Source of the DNA: a virus
Strand: one strand, 5' to 3'
Virus record (IMG/VR): IMGVR_UViG_3300044683_000172
Span: 1-64,000 of that record
Length of the DNA stretch: 64,000 nucleotides
In this document: piece by piece, positions 2,061-62,488 of the stretch
Numbering within the stretch: the stretch's first letter is position 1
Layout of the letters: each line of letters opens with the position of its first letter
The notes under the pieces: generated by a model
The model's database searches: none
What the model was told of the DNA's origin: nothing
The model's input: only the letters and a program-made list of their open reading frames with translations
Made by a program: the position numbers and the translations under genes

Positions 2061-2942
2061 TTAAATGACTGGAATTTTCCTGCAGCGACAATTTATTGCC
2101 CATCCTGGCGGCCCCAAATCGCCTTTCTTCAGATCGAATTCACCCCCGATTTGCCAAAGACGAGGGTCATTCAATTTGAATATGTGCCCATCCATTTTCT
2201 GGTGAGAATGGCGCGGTTCTTTTCCCGCCGATGAATGGGCCCATTCGAATTCTTCGACGCCATTTTCGGCCATTCGTTCGTCGCTCAAAGACGAATAAAG
2301 CTTACTTGTTTGGTCGCGCGCAATCAGTTTTACTTTATTCTTAGAGAAAGAGCCGATTTCCTTCAGTGCATTTTCTATCCCTGATTGGCCTTGTTCTTCA
2401 GGATTGGGCGACGTAAGAGAAAGCATCACCGCATTGAATACTTTTTCGTGAGTTTCTTTTTGTATGTTTGTGATGAGCGTGTGGTTGAACTCTTGCGCGG
2501 CTTGCAGCGTATTTGCGACATTCGAAGTATAGGCTGCGCGCGGCTGGTCGATTCCAGCCGTCTTCAGGCTCATCAGCGTCGCTGTTGTTGCGCCTTCATC
2601 GACTTTCTTGATGAATTCTGCAGCAGTCTTTTCTGCGAATGCATTGAAGATTCTTGCCCATCGCTTTTCCAATTTGGAAAGCGATGACGTGAGCTTATTT
2701 GTGGCTGCGGCATCTGTCGCAAAGAACTTGGCCACCGGACCAGACTTCAACGCTTCCTTGATTTGCGCGCGGTACTCTTCGATCATCAACTTGCAGATCG
2801 AATTGATTTCGCCCGCATACCATTCACGAATGGCAGCACTGGGGTTGATGGGGCGGCCGCGACCAACTGGTCGTTGATCGCGTCGTTTCCGCGATTTGGA
2901 TGCTGAGAAGGCCATCAAAGTTCTTTGCCAGTCAAGACCCAA
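2061..2942 (-). CDS. phage head morphogenesis protein, Mu F / SPP1 gp7 family
   Basis: C-terminal GPPGWAINCRCRKIPVI matches the MuF-family terminal motif. Lies downstream of the portal. Confidence 0.8.
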   Translation of the reverse strand: MGLDWQRTLMAFSASKSRKRRDQRPVGRGRPINPSAAIREWYAGEINSICKLMIEEYRAQIKEALKSGPVAKFFATDAAATNKLTSSLSKLEKRWARIFNAFAEKTAAEFIKKVDEGATTATLMSLKTAGIDQPRAAYTSNVANTLQAAQEFNHTLITNIQKETHEKVFNAVMLSLTSPNPEEQGQSGIENALKEIGSFSKNKVKLIARDQTSKLYSSLSDERMAENGVEEFEWAHSSAGKEPRHSHQKMDGHIFKLNDPRLWQIGGEFDLKKGDLGPPGWAINCRCRKIPVI

Positions 2943-3316
2943 CGCTTATTCTTCGGACCTTGTCCGGCTTCTTGATAGTTGACGGCTTCATATCGCTTGC
3001 CGTTCTTGTGAAACTCGCCAGTACTTCCGTTGCTATTTTTGATCGACAGGCCGCTGATCTTTTTGGTGCCGGCGATCTTTTCTGTTGCGGCTTCCAACTC
3101 TTTCGTTTTCGCTGCGCCCGGGCGCTGTGGAGTTCCAGAGGCGCTGAATTTGCCGGCCTGGTTCGGCTTTCCGTTGCCTTTCCTGGCACCGCTGGTATTT
3201 GCACCGCCGGAACCGAATTGTCCATTCGGTGCGCGCTTATGCTCGGACTCATTCCATTCGTCCATGGCCGAGTTTGCGGCCTTGAGTTTTGCGAGAATTT
3301 GCTTTGTGGTTACCAT
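2915..3316 (-). CDS. hypothetical basic, low-complexity protein (possible internal or packaged protein)
   Basis: 133-aa ORF rich in G/K/N/S, between portal and MuF. 28-nt overlap with MuF start. Confidence 0.45.
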   Translation of the reverse strand: MVTTKQILAKLKAANSAMDEWNESEHKRAPNGQFGSGGANTSGARKGNGKPNQAGKFSASGTPQRPGAAKTKELEAATEKIAGTKKISGLSIKNSNGSTGEFHKNGKRYEAVNYQEAGQGPKNKRWVLTGKEL

Positions 3317-3324
3317 GATTGAAA

Positions 3325-3762
3325 TTACGCCCCGATGATTGTGAAGTCACAAGTGTCGCCACTCGTCCCGCTGCTCATGCCGTAAAGATCATTCAGCGGA
3401 CCAAATGGAAGCGTTAGTGATTCCCCGGCAGAGATGCTGAAATCCACTGCCCCAACAGGCTTATTGAATGACAAATACAGCGTGTGATTTTGACTGTCAA
3501 CATTCTTGATCGTCAACGAGTTCTTGTAGGTTCCTCCTGCCGCAACAAGATCACGGCCACTCGTGCCGACCTTCATCGGCTCATTGATCACGATCCCGTT
3601 GTTGCTGATGCCGGTCTGAGGGTTTCCAGGAGCGGCGCCCGACTCGGGTGCACCAAGCGATACCGGCTTGCCCGTCTTCGGGTCGAGAACGAATGTTCCT
3701 ATGGCGGCATATTCGCCGCCACCGCCCTTGATAGGGGTTGGGTCGCCAGGCTTAAAGTACAT
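3325..3762 (-). CDS. hypothetical structural-module protein
   Basis: 145-aa ORF tightly packed directly downstream of the portal gene. Confidence 0.45.
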   Translation of the reverse strand: MYFKPGDPTPIKGGGGEYAAIGTFVLDPKTGKPVSLGAPESGAAPGNPQTGISNNGIVINEPMKVGTSGRDLVAAGGTYKNSLTIKNVDSQNHTLYLSFNKPVGAVDFSISAGESLTLPFGPLNDLYGMSSGTSGDTCDFTIIGA

Positions 3763-3765
3763 GTC

Positions 3766-6300
3766 TTATCCTTGATTATTGGATTCACCGTCCGCCATGT
3801 GCGGATTAACATCAGATTCTCGCCAGAATTCGTTTGTGTATGGGCCGCAGTGAGCTTTCTTTGAGTTCAACCAAGCCTTGAAGTCGTCCATCGACAACTC
3901 ATGAATGGAATCAAATCCGTCCCAACCTTCCGAGTAGGATTGGTCATATGCTTCTTTTGCTTCTTCGCGGCTGTCGAACCCGAGCATGCACTTGTGCTCG
4001 TCAAACTCGCCGTCTTTGCTGTTTTGATTGACGATGAACGCCTTTTGGGACTTCATGTTGGGTCCGACAAAGCAATCCATCTCATCGCCATCGGCGCCTT
4101 CGAATCCCTTGATGAAGCCATAGTGGTGCGGCATATTCACGCTCCACTCATCACCGTCCAGGGTGACGCCGCGACGAGTTGTCCCGCGCGGATTTTCGAT
4201 TGCCAGCGTCATGCCGTGAAGCTTGATCTTTGGAAGCTTCCAAGGCGCTTGCTCGGTCGCCACGGACAACGGCCCATGCGTCGATGCTCGGACGGACGAT
4301 GCGACGCCCGGCTTAACCGCGCGGTCTCGGCCGGGGACTTCGCCCGCTCGAATGTCCACACCTTCCGGACGAATCTCATCACTCAGACGCTCAATAACGT
4401 CCGTCATCCGACCCAGGATGTCCATGATTGCAGGCGATACGCCAGCAGCGGCCGGATCAAGCATCGTAGTTTGTTCTTGTTGTGCGCGCTTTTGTGCGGG
4501 CTCTTGGACTTCCGGAACGGCCGCGACCTTTGGAGGGACCTCGGTGGCCTCTGCGCTTTCGTTTGCGCCCATTCCAATCTTGCTGCCCTTGTTGACTTCT
4601 TCCTGGCGCGCACCTGCCGTCACGAGGGATGCCTTCGACTTCTCCTGTTGCGCGCCGGCCTTCTCCAACTCTGCCAGAACATCCGGCGACATGCCCGGCT
4701 CCGAATTCCCATCGTCGTTGCCCAGTCGGTTGTATCCGCTGTACTTGTCGTCCCGAATTCGATTGCGCTCCTCGTCCGGAGACAGCGCGCCGGATTCGAC
4801 CAAGGCAACGCCGGTTTGAGCCTTCGTCAAGTTCAGCTCAGCGCGTTGCTTGGCCGTCATCGAGTCAACAGGCTCCCAAACGTGCTGGATTTTCACCGTC
4901 AGCCCAAGCGACTTCTCCAGCAGCATGTAGTGCCGATCAAGGAGCGGCGACATGTCGTGCTTTTGAATCGATTCAAGTTCTTCGTGATAGTTGATCGTCT
5001 CAAACTCACCAGTAGAATTGAATCCCTTCGGGGACGTTCCCAGAAGCTTCGTTGCAGGAACCTTGCCAATCGCGGATACCAGCTGATACTGGTTCATGAT
5101 GACGGCGTCGAAGTCGGCCAGAGACGTGTCGAATTGCTCCATCGTCTCTTCTTTTCCCAAGACCTTCACTGCGTGATTGTCTCGGTACTTGACCCAGAAC
5201 TTGAGCTTGGCAATGAACTTGTCTTCGTTCAGAATTGCCTTTTCGGTATCGACGTGGATTGCCGTCGTTCGTTTGTTCGTAGCAAGCAGCGGCGCCTCAT
5301 TTGCCGTACGTTCGGCGGCATAGACGCGCTCATAGATGCGCTGGGTCAGCGGGATGCCGCCGAAAATGTACGTCGGCTTCAGAATGTCTGCCGGTTCCGG
5401 ACCGCGAACGATGATGAGGTGGCTTCGGTGATATTTCTTCCCGCTGATGATCCAGTATTCCGGTTCATAGAAGTGGATGGAGGAAGGATCGGCCGTTGCT
5501 TCAGCCGTCAGCATCGGCATCATCCAATACGGATCAACCTGTGAAATGCCCTTGTAGGAGCCCTTAGTAACGCCATCGATGTTGAATGGCTTCTCGTAAT
5601 AACGTTCATCGTCACTTTCCACCTCAAAGATGGCGACGCGGATGCCGAAGATGTTCTTGAATCGAACCAACTGTTTCAGGTTTTCCACCAACCTGAACTT
5701 GAGATCATAGCGCTCCAGCTCATCACGGGTTGCATCGTCCAACTCTTCATCTTCGCTGACCGCCTTGAGTGTCCAGCCGTTCCTCACGGCATCTTCCCCG
5801 GGCATAGAGCACGCCTTGTCCACAAGCCAATGCTGTGCGATAAGAGCGCACGCCTGATATCCGATGAACGACTGGGAAAGATACCAGTTCATCAGCTGCT
5901 CAGGGACTGCATACGGAGTTTGCATTGTTCCGGCCATGCTGGGATCGCACGTGCCGCAGGAATCATCCATTGCGTAAGTCTTCGCAATGGGCACGGCAGA
6001 GTCCATGACCAGGGAAGTGCCTGAGATCGTCTCCACTTTTGAATGGCTCTCATCTTCCAACTCGGCCATGGGGAATGAATCGACCCCTCGCAGAGTGAGG
6101 ATTCGCTCGCCGTCGGTTACGGTCCAACCTTCTTGGCGCCTGACGCGCTCCATCGGGTCCAACGGATCGGTGATCGGGACAAATTCCTGTTTGGCCTCGG
6201 GCGCGCGAGCCTTTCTTTTGCGACCAAACAGTCCGGTGATCTTATTGAGCATGGTGGATTCCGATGGGTGTACGCGCTCAGCCCGTAAGTTCACAGGCAT
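3766..6300 (-). CDS. portal protein with C-terminal inorganic-pyrophosphatase-like domain
   Basis: 844-aa ORF. The first ~530 aa sit in the usual portal position (after terminase, before MuF) and have portal-like size and composition. An acidic/Ala-rich linker follows. The last ~160 aa carry YGFI...DGDEMD...DGEFDEHK, which resembles the family I PPase signature (YGxI, DGDxxD, D..DxK). Confidence 0.7.
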   Translation of the reverse strand: MPVNLRAERVHPSESTMLNKITGLFGRKRKARAPEAKQEFVPITDPLDPMERVRRQEGWTVTDGERILTLRGVDSFPMAELEDESHSKVETISGTSLVMDSAVPIAKTYAMDDSCGTCDPSMAGTMQTPYAVPEQLMNWYLSQSFIGYQACALIAQHWLVDKACSMPGEDAVRNGWTLKAVSEDEELDDATRDELERYDLKFRLVENLKQLVRFKNIFGIRVAIFEVESDDERYYEKPFNIDGVTKGSYKGISQVDPYWMMPMLTAEATADPSSIHFYEPEYWIISGKKYHRSHLIIVRGPEPADILKPTYIFGGIPLTQRIYERVYAAERTANEAPLLATNKRTTAIHVDTEKAILNEDKFIAKLKFWVKYRDNHAVKVLGKEETMEQFDTSLADFDAVIMNQYQLVSAIGKVPATKLLGTSPKGFNSTGEFETINYHEELESIQKHDMSPLLDRHYMLLEKSLGLTVKIQHVWEPVDSMTAKQRAELNLTKAQTGVALVESGALSPDEERNRIRDDKYSGYNRLGNDDGNSEPGMSPDVLAELEKAGAQQEKSKASLVTAGARQEEVNKGSKIGMGANESAEATEVPPKVAAVPEVQEPAQKRAQQEQTTMLDPAAAGVSPAIMDILGRMTDVIERLSDEIRPEGVDIRAGEVPGRDRAVKPGVASSVRASTHGPLSVATEQAPWKLPKIKLHGMTLAIENPRGTTRRGVTLDGDEWSVNMPHHYGFIKGFEGADGDEMDCFVGPNMKSQKAFIVNQNSKDGEFDEHKCMLGFDSREEAKEAYDQSYSEGWDGFDSIHELSMDDFKAWLNSKKAHCGPYTNEFWRESDVNPHMADGESNNQG

Positions 6301-6408: not shown

Positions 6409-7242
6409 ATGGATTTCGATGACCTGGAAGACGATATCAACGCAGTGAGGACCAAACAAGTCGCACCCAAGGCGACTTATCGTGATGTGTGCCTGCGTTG
6501 TGGTGGAACCGGACGCTATAACGGCTCGTCATCGCTCGGATATCAATGCTTCCTATGCAAAGGGAAAGGATATCGAGAATACAAACAGTCGCCGGAACAG
6601 AGGGCGCGCGCAAAGACAAATGCCGCCAATCGCAAGGCTAAGAAGCAAGCGCAGAATCTTGAGTTGTTCGAAGCGGCCAACCCGGACTTCAAGGCTTGGT
6701 GGACCAATTCCACGTTCGATTTCGCGATCAGCCTTCGTGAATATGTCATCAAACACGGCGATTTGTCTGACGCACAACGAGCATCTGCACTTCGCTGCAT
6801 CGAGAAGAACAAGGCTTATCGCGCAGCGAAGATGGCAGCAGCAGAGCAAGCCCAGGAAGTGGATTTGAGCGGTGTTCAGGCTGTCTTCGAGCGCGCCCGC
6901 AAGAATGGCTATCACAGCCCAAGGATTTCGATCCTGGTGGGCGAGGATGGGCGATTGGTGCTTTCTCGCGCGCCTGATCACGGAGCCAACGCCGGATCGA
7001 TCTATTTGAAGGTCGGCGACTCATACATGGGCAAGGTTACAGGCGGCAAGTTCTATCGTTCGCGCGATTGCAGCAATGACGAAGAGTCCGACATTGTCGC
7101 GGCACTGCGCGATCCACTCGGCGCCGCCATAAAGTTCGGTCAACGCACCGGCATTTGCTCCTGCTGCAGCCGCAAGCTCACCAACGGTGAATCAATCGAA
7201 CTCGGGATTGGCCCGATCTGCCGAGAAAAGTTCTTTGGATAA
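6409..7242 (+). CDS. zinc-ribbon protein (CxxC..CxxC at N-terminus, CSCC..GPIC at C-terminus), function unknown
   Basis: 277-aa ORF on the opposite strand to the flanking packaging genes. Cys clusters CLRCGG...CFLCKG and GICSCCSRK...GIGPIC. Confidence 0.55.
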   Translation: MDFDDLEDDINAVRTKQVAPKATYRDVCLRCGGTGRYNGSSSLGYQCFLCKGKGYREYKQSPEQRARAKTNAANRKAKKQAQNLELFEAANPDFKAWWTNSTFDFAISLREYVIKHGDLSDAQRASALRCIEKNKAYRAAKMAAAEQAQEVDLSGVQAVFERARKNGYHSPRISILVGEDGRLVLSRAPDHGANAGSIYLKVGDSYMGKVTGGKFYRSRDCSNDEESDIVAALRDPLGAAIKFGQRTGICSCCSRKLTNGESIELGIGPICREKFFG

Positions 7243-7251
7243 GGAGATGAT

Positions 7252-7536
7252 ATGACTCGTTTGCATATGACTAGGTCGGATGCCGTTGAACTTCTGACGA
7301 ATGCCGCGCCAAACGACGCCTTCCAGATCGCGATCAAGAATTTGACGCAGGATGCGCTTGGATATGATTTGGATGGCCAAGGCCGTTCTTTCGTCCTTCT
7401 TCACGTCTCGCGGAATCAAGCGATCCGTGTCGCAAATAACTACATCACGGAAGGGCAGGAAGCGGCCGGTGCGCGCGTTCCGGTTTTCATGAAGCGCGGC
7501 CAGAACGGAAAGTGTACTTATTGCGTTGGATTCTGA
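7252..7536 (+). CDS. hypothetical protein
   Basis: 94-aa ORF 10 bp after the previous stop, same operon. Confidence 0.45.
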   Translation: MTRLHMTRSDAVELLTNAAPNDAFQIAIKNLTQDALGYDLDGQGRSFVLLHVSRNQAIRVANNYITEGQEAAGARVPVFMKRGQNGKCTYCVGF

Positions 7537-7572: not shown

Positions 7573-8337
7573 ATGGAAGACTTGGAAAAGATCAAGGATC
7601 GCATTTCAAAGCTTCTGGCGATGGCCGATGACGCATCCAGCCCGGAAGAAGCCGCGATTGCTGCAGAGCGCGCTCGCAAGTTGATGGACAAATATCAACT
7701 GGAGCGATTCGATGTGGAAGGGCGCGTCAGCGAAGAGTTTGCATCGATGGCAGCCAGCCGCGCATTCGCGGCGGTTCCTCAATACATGGCCTTCTTGGCA
7801 ACATCCGTCGCCCGATACAACGACTGCCAGGCATTCTTTTCGTTCGATGAAGTCACATTCAAGAAAAAGAATGCGGCCTTCAAAAAGTTCGGCAAAGTCA
7901 TCTCGTTTCGCGGCTACAAGTCCGATGTTGAACTGGCTCATCAAATGTTCACAAAATTGATGAGCGTCGTTGACGGACTTTGCAAGGTATATCTCAAGGA
8001 CAAGGGCTACACCAAATATCCGGTGCGTATCGGCGGCCAGTTCAAGCTTGGCGCAATCATGGTCATCGGAAACCGAATCAACGAGATGGTGAAGGAGCGA
8101 GATGCCATCACATCCTCGTCGGGCAATGCGCTTGTCGTGATCAAGAAAACGGCGGTGGATGAACACTTCGGAAAATGTGAACCGAAGTACGTTAGCGTCA
8201 AACGTGCCGACCGAGACGAAGCAGAGGCCGACGCCCGACGCGCTGGCTACGTGGAGGGCTCCAAGGTCGAAATCGTTGGCTCGTTGGAGTCGGAAGAAGA
8301 GGGCGAGAGTCCGTCTTCGCTTCGACTTTCGGCTTAA
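7573..8337 (+). CDS. DUF2786-like N-terminal domain protein
   Basis: N-terminus KIKDRISKLLAMADDASSPEEAAIAAERARKLMDKYQL matches the DUF2786 pattern common in phage and plasmid proteins. Good RBS (agaaaggaatagaaagATG). Confidence 0.55.
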   Translation: MEDLEKIKDRISKLLAMADDASSPEEAAIAAERARKLMDKYQLERFDVEGRVSEEFASMAASRAFAAVPQYMAFLATSVARYNDCQAFFSFDEVTFKKKNAAFKKFGKVISFRGYKSDVELAHQMFTKLMSVVDGLCKVYLKDKGYTKYPVRIGGQFKLGAIMVIGNRINEMVKERDAITSSSGNALVVIKKTAVDEHFGKCEPKYVSVKRADRDEAEADARRAGYVEGSKVEIVGSLESEEEGESPSSLRLSA

Positions 8338-9263: not shown

Positions 9264-9909
9264 CTTCAGCGCAGCAAACAAAGCGCGCTCCGACAAGGAA
9301 TTCCCATCATGCGCCGATTGGCCGTTGGTCAATTGGATGAATGCCGCGCATGGCGAATTGGGCGAGGCGTCCAATGTTCTAAAGAAGATGCTGCGCGGCG
9401 ACTACGGCCCGAACGGCGAGCGCTCGCCCGAGTTTCTTGCGGCATTCGGCAAGGAGCTTCACGACGCTCTGGCGTACATCGATCTGGCTGCGACATGCGC
9501 CGGTCTGTCGCTGGAAACGGTGACCATCCAGAAGTGGAACGAAGTCAGCGAGCGCATCGGCTCGTCGATGCGCATCGACGCAGATGGGTTGTTCAACATC
9601 GAACAGAAGAAGCATTCCGCACCCGCTCTGGCCAGCGGATCGATCTGGCCTCGCCGTCTGAATCCGGATGAGGTGCGAATCGGTATGCTGGTGCGCTATG
9701 CCAACGGAGAAACGGCCCTGGCCAAGATCGCGTCGCCGCACGCCGGTGGATGGCACGCCCATCAATGCATGGGTGGAATGCTCTTCGTGAGCGCCAATGG
9801 GTATGGCGGCTATCTCTATGAGCCGACCCAACAGGACATCGATACGTGGAACGAGTGCAAGAAGTGGCGCACCGACTTCGGACGGCACGCCGACCCTTCT
9901 GGCGTTTAA
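9250..9909 (+). CDS. MazG-like all-alpha NTP pyrophosphohydrolase domain fused to unknown C-terminal domain
   Basis: AAHGELGEASNVLKK...FGKELHDALAYIDLAA fits the MazG/NTP-PPase EExxE...ELxD pattern. Start at ATG 9250 with RBS ggagaaagacc. Confidence 0.55.
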   Translation: MHIRDFSAANKARSDKEFPSCADWPLVNWMNAAHGELGEASNVLKKMLRGDYGPNGERSPEFLAAFGKELHDALAYIDLAATCAGLSLETVTIQKWNEVSERIGSSMRIDADGLFNIEQKKHSAPALASGSIWPRRLNPDEVRIGMLVRYANGETALAKIASPHAGGWHAHQCMGGMLFVSANGYGGYLYEPTQQDIDTWNECKKWRTDFGRHADPSGV

Positions 9910-11306
9910 AGATCGAAGAATCCTGCCGGGGCGCGCTTCGGCTTGATCAAGGACATGATTACGGCGTCGGCGATGTTTGGCGATTTGATTCCGCGCTTTT
10001 CTTTCATGTCCTTCTTCGATTCCACTTTGAACTTGCCCATCCCATCAATGTCCTTTCGGGGTGCGGCAAGTTCTTGGCACATCTTGTTGAGGGTCTTTTC
10101 GCCTACCATGGCGACAATCGCGTCTTTGTCGATTGAAACGAGTTCGTCAAATGGGTGATCGACACCCAAGACGACTGCTTCATAAGTCTTTCGGAACATC
10201 GATGCAACGCGATCCCACATCTGCGCCTTGATGTTCGAAAAGTGCTCTCTGTTGAGAATCTTGACGTGAGGCAATTCCATGTACACGCCGTCCGGCTCAA
10301 GAACGCTGCCGCCTGCGTTGAACGGGTTGTAGCTCAGAATGAATCCATCATTGTTCGAGTCATTCAACTCAGCAAACTTCGATCCAACGTGCGCTCCTAC
10401 GCCGATGGAGTCGAAGTTCACTTCTGCGCCATACACCTTTGCGGCATTGTAGACGCGCGTCGAAGATTTCAGAATTTCGTTCTCCAGCCCATCCCATTCT
10501 TCAACGTGATCGATGATGTTTCCGGTGCAACCGACCAAGGCATTCTTGTCGTCTCCGTCGTCTGCAACGTCGAAACCCATCACGCGCTTGCCTTCCTTTT
10601 TCCAGCCAAGCTTCTTGTGGGCGTCGATTGCGGCAAGTACATATTCAAGACTGATGACGCTCTTGTCGCCGCCAGTCTTTGGAATCCCTCCATAGACGTG
10701 TTCGGCGTTCTTCCGATCCTTGCGGTATGCGTCGGCAATGACCTTTAGCATCGTGTCGCTGAGGAATGGATTCAGTTGCCAATTGAACAGCCGCTGGATC
10801 GAGTCTTCCGGTGGATCAACAACGAAGTATTGATACACAAAGTCCATCATCTCATCTGGGTTCCAGATGATCCAAATCTGGGAGCCTTTCTTACGAATTG
10901 TCGGCTCGATGACGTTCCATTGGTCTTGTGTCAAGTAGTGAGCTTCTTCTAGCCAGAGGATATCGACGCCTTCAGTGGACTTGATTTCGCTCAGGTTACG
11001 AGCGATACCGTAGAACAGAAACGATGAGCCGGTGCGCTTGTTGACAATCGAGTTCTTCAGAATTTGGAAGTCATTGCGCCATGGGCTATCTTCGATCTTG
11101 TCTTTCAGAAGAGTGTACACCGATTCATCAATGCGGTTCTGGAACTGACGTGCGCAAAGAATCTTCAGTGTGAAGTTGGCCGCGAGATACACTGCAATGC
11201 CGGCAGCGTCGTGGGACTTGCCGGACGCACGTCCGCCATACAGGACTTTGTAGCGCTTGCGTGCGCGCCAGAAGTCCTTCAGATAAGGGTTGAGACGGTA
11301 AGCCAT
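9906..11306 (-). CDS. terL: terminase large subunit
   Basis: Walker A GGRASGKS, WLEEAH, IWNPDE nuclease and ATPase motifs. 466 aa. Confidence 0.9.
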   Translation of the reverse strand: MAYRLNPYLKDFWRARKRYKVLYGGRASGKSHDAAGIAVYLAANFTLKILCARQFQNRIDESVYTLLKDKIEDSPWRNDFQILKNSIVNKRTGSSFLFYGIARNLSEIKSTEGVDILWLEEAHYLTQDQWNVIEPTIRKKGSQIWIIWNPDEMMDFVYQYFVVDPPEDSIQRLFNWQLNPFLSDTMLKVIADAYRKDRKNAEHVYGGIPKTGGDKSVISLEYVLAAIDAHKKLGWKKEGKRVMGFDVADDGDDKNALVGCTGNIIDHVEEWDGLENEILKSSTRVYNAAKVYGAEVNFDSIGVGAHVGSKFAELNDSNNDGFILSYNPFNAGGSVLEPDGVYMELPHVKILNREHFSNIKAQMWDRVASMFRKTYEAVVLGVDHPFDELVSIDKDAIVAMVGEKTLNKMCQELAAPRKDIDGMGKFKVESKKDMKEKRGIKSPNIADAVIMSLIKPKRAPAGFFDL

Positions 11307-61421: not shown

Positions 61422-61898
61422 TCAAACGATTTTGCTGTTGACGGTTTTCCACATGTGGGCCGAATCAATCAGCGGTTTATCAAAGCCCTTCTTTTTCACC
61501 GTGGATGGTGCATTCTTCTCCCATCCGCCATTTCTGATGCTACGTACAATAGTAGCCACCAAAAAATCTCCAATTTGCGCCAAAGCTTGTTCTTGTGTTA
61601 TTTCGCCTGCAACAACCTTCTTCGCCAATTTAACTTGCACTTCAACCCGACGTTGGTTAAAGTCGCTCCAAGCCTTTCGCATAAACGGACGAGCCGGGAT
61701 AACTATCTTGTGTCCGTCTCGCTCGATAGTCGCTCCAAACTCTTGGATTCGCGCGACCGCCGCGACTGGTATGCCGACACTCTTGCCTTTCGCTGCTGGA
61801 TACCGGTCTGATTCGAACCATCCCGCTTCAACGGTCTTGTGTTCGATTCCTTTGAGAGCCTTCAAATGCCTCTCGATAAGTTCAGACTTGGCTTTCAC
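61422..61898 (-). CDS. phage virion morphogenesis / tail completion protein (Mu gpG / Phage_tail_S-like)
   Basis: GFDKPLIDSAHMWK motif characteristic of this family. Confidence 0.6.
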   Translation of the reverse strand: MKAKSELIERHLKALKGIEHKTVEAGWFESDRYPAAKGKSVGIPVAAVARIQEFGATIERDGHKIVIPARPFMRKAWSDFNQRRVEVQVKLAKKVVAGEITQEQALAQIGDFLVATIVRSIRNGGWEKNAPSTVKKKGFDKPLIDSAHMWKTVNSKIV

Positions 61899-62488
61899 GG
61901 AACAGGATAAACTTCAATTTCAGCACTTCGAACAACTCCGATGTCATTTTCAATCGATCTGATGTGAGTCAGAACAATATCAAAACTCGGATAAGCCTCA
62001 AATCGAAGCTTATCATCTTCAAAGTACGGGTTTCGAACTTCCGTGACCCGATACATGCCAACATTCGCGATCTTCAATTTCCGAACGGTTGCGCGACTGC
62101 CAATCAGCATTCGAAGTCTCTCGGTGATGTCTGCGGCAGTCGGAAGCGTTATGTCTTTTGGATCTTCCTGAATGAAAGAACTGATTTGGAAAGTCGTTTG
62201 AAACCATTGACTTTCCTTTTCTTTGAAAACATCTTCGGCAGGAACGTACGAATAATCTGATTTTGCAAATCCGTACTGAGTGCTGAAAAGTTTTTCAAAA
62301 AAGACTGATGGACCTTCCGGCATGCCTTCTTGATGCGGCTGGTTTTTCTGGATGACCGGATATGTCCACCCTGATGCCGCGACTGCTTCTTCAAGCAGAC
62401 CGGCCACCAGGATTTTCAGTTCATTGTCAGTCACTTGGATCGCCTTTGAATACGCCAACATCAACGGCCAAGCAACTTGCCCAGCCAT
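61895..62488 (-). CDS. hypothetical neck / head-tail joining protein
   Basis: 197-aa ORF in the neck module. Confidence 0.45.
   Translation of the reverse strand: MAGQVAWPLMLAYSKAIQVTDNELKILVAGLLEEAVAASGWTYPVIQKNQPHQEGMPEGPSVFFEKLFSTQYGFAKSDYSYVPAEDVFKEKESQWFQTTFQISSFIQEDPKDITLPTAADITERLRMLIGSRATVRKLKIANVGMYRVTEVRNPYFEDDKLRFEAYPSFDIVLTHIRSIENDIGVVRSAEIEVYPVP

Follow-up and report, generated by a model that had tools for sequence, protein, structure and literature searches.

The InPase clade was defined in 2017 by Iyer, Burroughs, Anand, de Souza and Aravind (PMC5512222), who cited a fusion of such a domain to a phage portal protein, BcepF1 gp124 (BcepF1.124), proposed that InPase is packaged in the virion and injected, and offered two roles for it, hydrolysis of nucleotide-like signals or clearance of inorganic pyrophosphate (PPi) for early replication and transcription. 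Here we describe the portal gene of a 64,000-nucleotide stretch of viral DNA, positions 1 to 64,000 of the IMG/VR record IMGVR_UViG_3300044683_000172 (the window, by which we mean this whole stretch), which makes up the greater part of a PB1/E217-like, contractile-tailed myophage genome. The gene joins a portal protein in frame to a C-terminal InPase domain. What is new here is the divergent member only, as the InPase family, the portal fusion and the injection hypothesis were all published in 2017. A preliminary description of this DNA, made from the letters alone, had known of no described fusion of a portal with a pyrophosphatase (PPase), which has to be corrected in view of BcepF1.124, the Pfam family PF18823 and the GenBank record of Serratia phage MyoSmar, where an inorganic pyrophosphatase InterPro domain is marked on the portal.

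The window portal shows the same end-to-end architecture as the portals of E217 and Pa193 (Pbunavirus; Protein Data Bank (PDB) entries 8fvh and 9b41), WTB, Maja, BcepF1, FEC19 (Wifcevirus), Carpasina and MyoSmar, namely a propeptide-like N-terminus, the Phage_portal_3 core, a barrel, a variable tether and InPase, and it is 53-57% identical to them overall, ~70% in the core and ~60% in InPase. Among sequenced phages Burkholderia phage vB_BglM_WTB is the nearest, its portal being the best match at 57% identity, so that the window portal is a new divergent member of the group; matches to known phages at the DNA level cover parts of the portal core only, at 73-79%. Compared with E217 the protein is longer (844 against 765 residues), with a longer tether and a 32-residue tail after InPase. 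The order terL ... portal - MuF is the same in the window and in E217/WTB-type relatives, whereas the window has in addition two small open reading frames (ORFs; 145 and 133 residues) between portal and MuF and an ORF of 608 residues after MuF. When set against the InPase of polyvalent proteins (PF18823; PMC5512222), the window domain scores far above the threshold of the hidden Markov model and has all the family-invariant residues. The polyvalent carriers are proteins of 1,000-6,600 residues with many effector domains and their own processing peptidase, whereas the carrier here is a portal, in a protein of two domains.

The portal-InPase fusion and its distribution

The gene is an uninterrupted ORF of 844 codons at 3766-6300 on the minus strand, with its stop codon at 3766-3768, in which Pfam places Phage_portal_3 (PF06381) at residues 148-496 (E 2.9e-90) and InPase ('Inorganic Pyrophosphatase', PF18823) at residues 683-812. 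That this ORF encodes a portal, as the preliminary description had it, is upheld by the alignment of Pa193 gp19 (9b41) with residues 20-813 (E 2e-265), which takes in the InPase domain; the alignment with E217 gp19 (8fvh) has an E value of 2.7e-200. These solved portals are dodecamers, and identity to the Pa193/E217 gp19 portal is 53%. The parts of the gene are as follows (a downward arrow marks a cleavage site here and below).

3766..6300, minus strand: portal gene, often annotated 'minor head protein', InPase included; 844 residues, alternative start at 6252 (M17)
6001..6300, minus strand: N-terminal region, residues 1-100, ending at SLVMD100↓S101, a conserved (A/V)-(M/V)-D↓S site; predicted propeptide, from motif comparison
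4813..5859, minus strand: portal core, Phage_portal_3 (PF06381), residues 148-496; Pfam E 2.9e-90, E217 gp19 (8fvh) E 2.7e-200
4600..4710, minus strand: C-terminal barrel helix region, about residues 531-567, SPDVLAELEKAGAQQEKSKAS; aligned with Pa193/E217 gp19
4231..4599, minus strand: hypervariable Ala/Glu/Pro/Gly-rich tether, residues 568-690 (~120 residues); mean pairwise identity 0.19
3865..4254, minus strand: InPase domain (PF18823), residues 683-812 (130 residues), a family-I-PPase-like beta-barrel by Pfam, model and structural matches
4069..4134, minus strand: core catalytic motif MPHHYGFIKGFEGADGDEMDCF, residues 723-744; aligned to >30 solved PPases
3991..4005, minus strand: FDEHK strand, residues 766-770; invariant or nearly so in the family
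3769..3864, minus strand: variable C-terminal tail, residues 813-844; contains GPYTNEFW

The barrel helix region aligns with the final modelled residues of Pa193 and E217 gp19 (to residue 528). Within the tether we noticed a semi-conserved helix-like segment at about residues 622-645, and directly before the InPase domain a PEGVDI...R.VKPGV segment. The linker had been characterized as low-complexity and acidic/Ala-rich; it is indeed Ala-rich, residues 531-682 being rich in Ala, Glu, Val, Gly and Pro, but its acidity is mild only (D+E 23 against K+R 17). The guanine + cytosine content of this inter-domain segment is 62%, against 54% for the window. The GPYTNEFW of the tail is common to WTB and the metagenomic protein P0005. 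Both strings quoted in the preliminary description are exact, HHYGFIKGFEGADGDEMDCFVGP at residues 725-747 and KDGEFDEHK at residues 762-770, and the interval given there for the extension, 3769-4250, corresponds to residues 684-844.

The start of the gene is ambiguous, as translation could begin at the ATG at 6300 (844 residues) or at the ATG at 6252 (M17, 828 residues), and no clear Shine-Dalgarno sequence was found at either of the two. The portals of E217 and WTB start at the position aligned to M17, and from this comparison the true start may be M17, 16 codons downstream of the annotated one.

In a tblastn search 349 phage records matched 80% or more of the full-length portal, and among the matches listed all but one of the full-length rows are in one piece. 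The carriers of the fusion include Pbunavirus, Escherichia Wifcevirus, and Burkholderia, Xanthomonas and Serratia myophages. Similarly, PHROG 4660 ('minor head protein', 765 profile positions) spans residues 26-823 in one unbroken stretch. Since the same fusion is seen in the 349 phage records, in PHROG 4660 and in PDB 9b41, a sequencing frameshift is excluded even without recourse to read data, and Pfam and structural matches agree on an in-frame fusion of a portal to a PPase-like domain, as had been proposed.

The related phages also include portals without the extension, from Burkholderia phage BCSR129, Bordetella phage IFTN4 and Shewanella phage 1/41. The BCSR129 portal (46% identity, 693 residues) has a different, unassigned C-terminus of ~145 residues, and the portals of IFTN4 and Shewanella 1/41 match the query only up to about residue 525-535. 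The domain is therefore an accessory module on a conserved portal. It may be noted that in BCSR129 (a 66-kb phage, portal at 3049-5130) a NUDIX pyrophosphohydrolase gene lies at 6968-7396, right after MuF in the head module, and its product may be a functional substitute for InPase; associations of InPase with NUDIX were reported by Iyer et al. 2017 (PMC5512222).

Identity and putative active site of the InPase domain

The PF18823 profile matches the domain over positions 5-135 of 135 (E 1.2e-48), scoring 164.8 bits where the cut-off is 26.8, which is far beyond chance. We also modelled the domain with AlphaFold2, and from an alignment of 36 homologues the predicted local distance difference test score (pLDDT) was 86.9, against 49 from the single sequence. 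The top structural matches are all PPases, and the domain has the PPase-type beta-barrel (OB-like, oligonucleotide/oligosaccharide-binding) fold, so the PPase-like nature suggested earlier for the C-terminal region is borne out by both profile and structure.

The likeness is concentrated in one place. A profile of the 36 homologues matches 33 distinct PPase sequences in the PDB, all via the same ~24-residue motif, MPHHYGFIKGFEGADGDEMDCFV. In these alignments Y727 and G728 fall on Y55 and G56 of E. coli PPase, and D737, D739 and D742 on D65, D67 and D70, which we take to be the metal ligands of the classical enzyme. Family I PPases carry the PROSITE-type signature D-[SGDN]-D-[PE]-[LIVMF]-D-[LIVMGAC], and DGDEMDC (residues 737-743) fits it and aligns to D65/D67/D70 of solved PPases. 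The central motif is thus of the same type, Y-G-[FY]-I...D-G-D-x-x-D-x-x-V, as in family I PPases such as E. coli Ppa and M. tuberculosis Rv3628 (PF00719, EC 3.6.1.1), although identity to them is 12-18%; the IE-x-P strand of the window domain matches E20 of family I PPases at low confidence, and the HH before YG, Q759, F766, E768 and H769 are InPase-specific invariants when compared with family I.

Beyond this motif the comparison is of another kind. In both local and global alignments with E. coli PPase, hhalign supported only the 23-residue central motif and gave the rest zero confidence, and the mapping of D97, D102 and K104 that it offered was dropped because it lay in that remainder. Hence, of the two PPase signatures named in the preliminary description, the first (Y-G...D-G-D-x-x-D) is backed by statistical alignment to PPases, and the equation of KDGEFDEHK with DEAGEDAK is not backed by alignment, hhalign having put the segment elsewhere at zero confidence. 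In the predicted model the KDGEFDEHK segment lies in a beta-hairpin, and by its position in that hairpin only, the FDEHK strand is the probable counterpart of the E. coli PPase D102/K104 strand.

The active site of E. coli PPase comprises E20, K29, E31, R43, Y51, Y55, D65, D67, D70, D97, D102, K104, Y141 and K142. Counterparts of Y55, D65, D67 and D70 are supported, and those of E20 (E702), K29/R43 (R709) and D102/K104 (D767/E768/K770) are plausible by position only. No invariant counterpart of E31, R43, D97 or K142, which include the leaving-group phosphate ligands, was found in the InPase family alignment. The domain is ~45 residues shorter than E. coli PPase, with hhalign gaps where the classical beta-hairpin sits, and the strand count from DSSP was ambiguous; the InPase clade was described as being without the additional beta-hairpin lying between core strands one and two of classical PPases (PMC5512222).

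Taken by its sequence, the domain, encoded in the last ~480 nt of the gene, is a compact, phage-specific offshoot of the family I soluble inorganic pyrophosphatases. As we read the alignments, the half of the site that deals with metal and electrophilic phosphate would have been kept and the other half remodelled, which would be consistent with a pyrophosphohydrolase that acts on PPi or on another substrate. As the leaving-group residues R43, K142, E31 and D97 are without invariant counterpart, either PPi or a nucleotide-like pyrophosphate is possible as substrate. We predict that the domain is probably an active Mg2+-dependent pyrophosphohydrolase.

Conservation of the fused domain

Selection was compared region by region as mean pairwise identity among seven portal-InPase proteins, each from a different genus.

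Portal core: 0.67
InPase domain: 0.55
Barrel: 0.38
N-terminal region: 0.21
Tether: 0.19

Over the seven genera, 37 residues of InPase do not vary. In the 36 diverse homologues the invariant set is Y58, G59, D68, D70, D73, Q90, F97, D98 and E99 in domain numbering, that is, in the portal, the Y, the G, the three Asp, Q759, F766, D767 and E768, with E702, R709, W719, H769 and K770 nearly invariant. The window protein has every invariant or nearly invariant column (E, R, W, HYG, DGDxxD, Q, FDEHK, A, Y) of the 36-sequence and seven-fusion alignments. The constellation E...Y-G...D-G-D-x-x-D, the binding site of family I PPases for Mg2+ and the electrophilic phosphate, is intact in it. Judged from these alignments, the InPase domain is under purifying selection nearly as strong as that on the portal core, and selection on the putative catalytic residues of the portal-borne InPase is well supported.

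Position of the domain in the virion

In E217 the portal model takes in residues 97-528 of 765, with a C-terminal helical barrel that reaches into the head and was ordered only when DNA was present. For Pa193 the model covers residues 94-528; residues 529-765 'had no discernable density' and residues 1-93 were not found by liquid chromatography-mass spectrometry. The deposited sequence of 9b41 contains the InPase domain, and the domain itself is not resolved. From purified virions of SCUT-S1 (Pbunavirus) mass spectrometry recovered 44 peptides of the 'minor head protein', covering 59% of it; the 84.5 kDa given for this protein is its predicted and not its observed mass. Because 59% exceeds the 57% that residues 94-528 alone could yield, part of the C-terminal third would be in SCUT-S1 virions. 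From this coverage and the wording of the Pa193 paper we infer that the C-terminal region of the portal is present in virions. The preliminary description had the portal C-terminus facing the capsid interior or DNA channel, which agrees with the barrel projecting into the capsid in the E217 paper, and the InPase domain is very likely capsid-internal. It would then sit inside the head on a flexible tether, with up to 12 copies in each particle.

Predicted prohead protease sites in the portal

The relatives that we examined encode a head maturation protease of the DUF2213 type. N-terminal sequencing of the KPP12 capsid protein has been reported (PMC3474789), and this N-terminus corresponds to S65 in the E217 capsid protein, so that cleavage falls after GSAMD (AMD↓S). 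The cleavage column is conserved as (A/V/G)-(M/F/G)-D↓(S/A) in six capsid proteins, and the motif recurs near the C-terminus of all six proteases as FDHxxMD↓S/A (NARGMD↓A in tabernarius). All eight portals have the motif Asp, usually followed by Ser, in their N-terminal region, the window site being SLVMD100↓S101. Among the 2,113 residues of the E217 head proteins AMDS is found three times, where shuffled sequences would give 0.02. The prohead protease is thereby predicted to remove the first ~100 residues of the window portal, and we propose that such trimming is why residues 1-93/96 are absent from the Pa193 and E217 portal maps and went undetected by liquid chromatography-mass spectrometry.

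A second column of this kind lies ~35 residues before InPase, where an aligned x-D↓A site is present in four of seven relatives (E217 HND↓AP, WTB QMD↓AS, Carpasina AGD↓AP and tabernarius GFD↓AL). This column could be a release site in the tether, but we regard it as a lead and not as evidence, since shared ancestry could explain it and the site is weakest in the window. Production of free InPase from a nested internal start, like lambda C/Nu3, was also considered and rejected, as no suitable start was found in residues 540-705.

Possible function of the portal-borne InPase

The explanation that we favour on balance, covering the identity, location and predicted enzymatic nature of the portal-borne InPase, is that the portal serves as a capsid-targeting carrier, which would place 12 copies of InPase inside the head beside the DNA exit. 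The DUF2213-type prohead protease with which the clade trims its capsid protein could free InPase from the portal, and the freed enzyme would leave the head with the DNA, as proposed by Iyer et al. 2017 (PMC5512222). Once in the host, the enzyme would clear PPi as transcription and replication begin, or break down a host signal that contains a pyrophosphate. The same logic, an enzyme carried into the procapsid by a targeting module and ready when the next infection starts, is found in the capsid-targeted internal proteins of T4 (Alt, IPI-III) and in MuF/SPP1 gp7-type portal-associated proteins with effector domains (PMC5512222), except that the T4 and MuF-type cargos are held non-covalently or cut from a short targeting peptide, whereas the cargo here is covalently joined to a portal that is retained in the virion. 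Release from the portal and exit with the DNA is ranked first among the readings because InPase is recurrently carried by proteins presumed to be injected and the clade has a capsid-internal protease, but we advance it tentatively, delivery being the weakest link of the whole explanation. Portals stay in the virion after ejection, and a domain still tethered to one cannot reach the cell through a tail of ~130-150 nm; even a freed, folded domain of ~15 kDa would pass the 37-Å lumen of the tube tightly, if at all. Several results also weigh against the explanation. At the aligned release site the window tether reads AGE↓VP and not x-D↓A, FEC19 has FD↓PQ there and MyoSmar nothing comparable, and no internal in-frame start with a Shine-Dalgarno sequence was found in residues 540-705. 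On the side of the chemistry, the classical PPase profile PF00719 reached 14.2 bits against a gathering score of 23.5 (E 0.038) over 29 residues, the central motif only, and we found no enzymatic or genetic test of any InPase domain in the literature.

The weak match to PF00719 is also what could be said for an artefact, in which a frameshift had joined two genes or a DGD-rich motif mimicked a PPase by chance. Its probability is practically negligible, being already refuted by the full-length fusion in 349 phage genomes from at least five host genera (and in PHROG 4660 and PDB 9b41), by an InPase match with E of 1e-48 and by top structural matches that are all PPases. A role in PPi/ATP chemistry during packaging, raised in the preliminary description, we consider unlikely and have set aside, since the terminase yields ADP and Pi, not PPi, and acts on the outer side of the portal, opposite to an InPase inside the head. 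A stronger competitor, though itself unlikely, is that the domain stays tethered and acts inside the head, with catalysis maybe secondary; possible roles would be nucleation or sizing of the procapsid core, binding of Mg2+ and DNA phosphate near the last-packaged end, or a valve for DNA retention and release together with the barrel. It accords with the retention of portals, with an E217 barrel ordered only with DNA, with a window tether in which the protease motif x-(M/F/G)-D↓(S/A) is not well matched and with the SCUT-S1 mass spectrometry, which covers more of the portal than the structured core; moreover, 12 copies could form PPase-like trimers or hexamers, whose symmetry mismatch would explain the missing density. 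Against it, the Asp triad and FDEHK are invariant also in stand-alone and polyvalent versions, which argues for selection on chemistry and not on a portal-specific structure, close portal relatives without the domain (BCSR129, IFTN4, Shewanella 1/41) indicate that assembly does not need it, and the DNA-filled head offers no obvious substrate. It is more doubtful still that InPase works in the cytoplasm in the late phase before assembly, where PPi hydrolysis would drive DNA synthesis or nucleotidyl transfer and the fusion would merely secure co-expression. PPi clearance is among the two roles offered by Iyer et al. (PMC5512222) and jumbo Vibrio phages have stand-alone InPase genes, but InPase occurs overwhelmingly in virion-associated architectures (portal, tail, 'minor head' and giant packaged polyvalent proteins), and hosts already own an abundant essential PPase, which makes a 12-copy structural protein a poor vehicle.

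One specific form of the delivery hypothesis deserves mention as a long shot. The protease would cut the tether ~35 residues before InPase, and the twelve enzymes would exit with the DNA and hydrolyse a pyrophosphate-containing immune or stress nucleotide, e.g. an alarmone or a defence signal or substrate, and not bulk PPi. If this were true, InPase would be a pre-packaged anti-defence enzyme of a major therapeutic phage group.

InPase in other phage proteins

An exhaustive search returned 11,375 cluster representatives with InPase, 9,803 of them at E <= 1e-10. The best matches are mostly proteins of 1,000-6,600 residues, and a minority are portal-sized with a C-terminal InPase. Homologues occur in portal, tail, DarB-like and giant polyvalent proteins, and the stand-alone genes of jumbo Vibrio phages are annotated 'inorganic pyrophosphatase'. 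In BFVD the best viral structural match is the 'Portal protein' of Serratia phage MTx, and several viral proteins there are named 'Inorganic pyrophosphatase domain-containing protein'.

Many of the non-portal InPase proteins (P0008-P0035) have a conserved AHxAATSPxNDLxxPTxAQkxAGNYKKGH directly before the domain; the portal fusions are without it and have PEGVDI...R.VKPGV in its place. The two sub-architectures seem to carry different conserved lead-in segments. The top-scoring representative, P0036 (1116 residues), has two matched InPase stretches and may be a tandem duplication.

Genomic setting

The portal gene lies between terL and MuF, as in the head module of an E217-like genome.

9906..11306, minus strand: terminase large subunit, upstream of the portal gene
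2061..2915, minus strand: MuF-like head morphogenesis gene, downstream of the portal gene

Neck and tail genes occupy 48-63 kb on the same strand as the portal gene, with a homologue of the E217 gateway protein gp29 at 61895-62488. A search with WTB proteins gave no match to prohead protease or capsid genes in the window; these should lie in the ~3-4 kb beyond its ends, if the genome is circularly permuted and ~67-68 kb long.

The two small ORFs between portal and MuF are at 2915-3316 (minus strand, 133 residues) and 3325-3762 (minus strand, 145 residues), whereas in E217 the portal and MuF genes are adjacent or overlapping. The 133-residue product has weak matches to phrog_30637 and to the longer portal family profile phrog_15528, in the latter towards the C-terminal end (positions 639-679 of 794). 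This suggests that the 133-residue ORF may be a module that is fused to the portal in other phages.

Directly downstream of the MuF gene, at 225-2051 on the minus strand, is the ORF of 608 residues. Its N-terminus, MKRFFRLVAMLVIASASTAWAQ, resembles a signal peptide, and its body is rich in Ser, Thr, Gly and Asn. No Pfam family matches it significantly, and WTB has no counterpart. The ORF fills the slot where relatives carry small ORFs and then the prohead protease, and was considered as a protease or capsid gene on account of its place, but it is unrelated to either. An apparently secreted protein within a head module is unusual.

Between portal and terminase there are two divergent genes, at 6409-7242 and 7573-8337 (both plus strand), for DUF6011 and DUF2786/DUF7168 proteins, an arrangement as in E217 (where gp13 is DUF6011) and WTB.

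Significance

Every PB1-like phage sequenced carries this same portal-InPase fusion, and for two of them there are near-atomic virion structures. PB1-like phages are used in Pseudomonas phage therapy, and the maps do not show a third of their portal protein (in E217 and Pa193, residues 529-765). The divergent member in the window helps to define the conserved parts of portal-InPase, and the comparison yields a protease motif for the N-terminal trimming of the portal together with a candidate release site in the tether. The architecture will be no surprise to the specialist.

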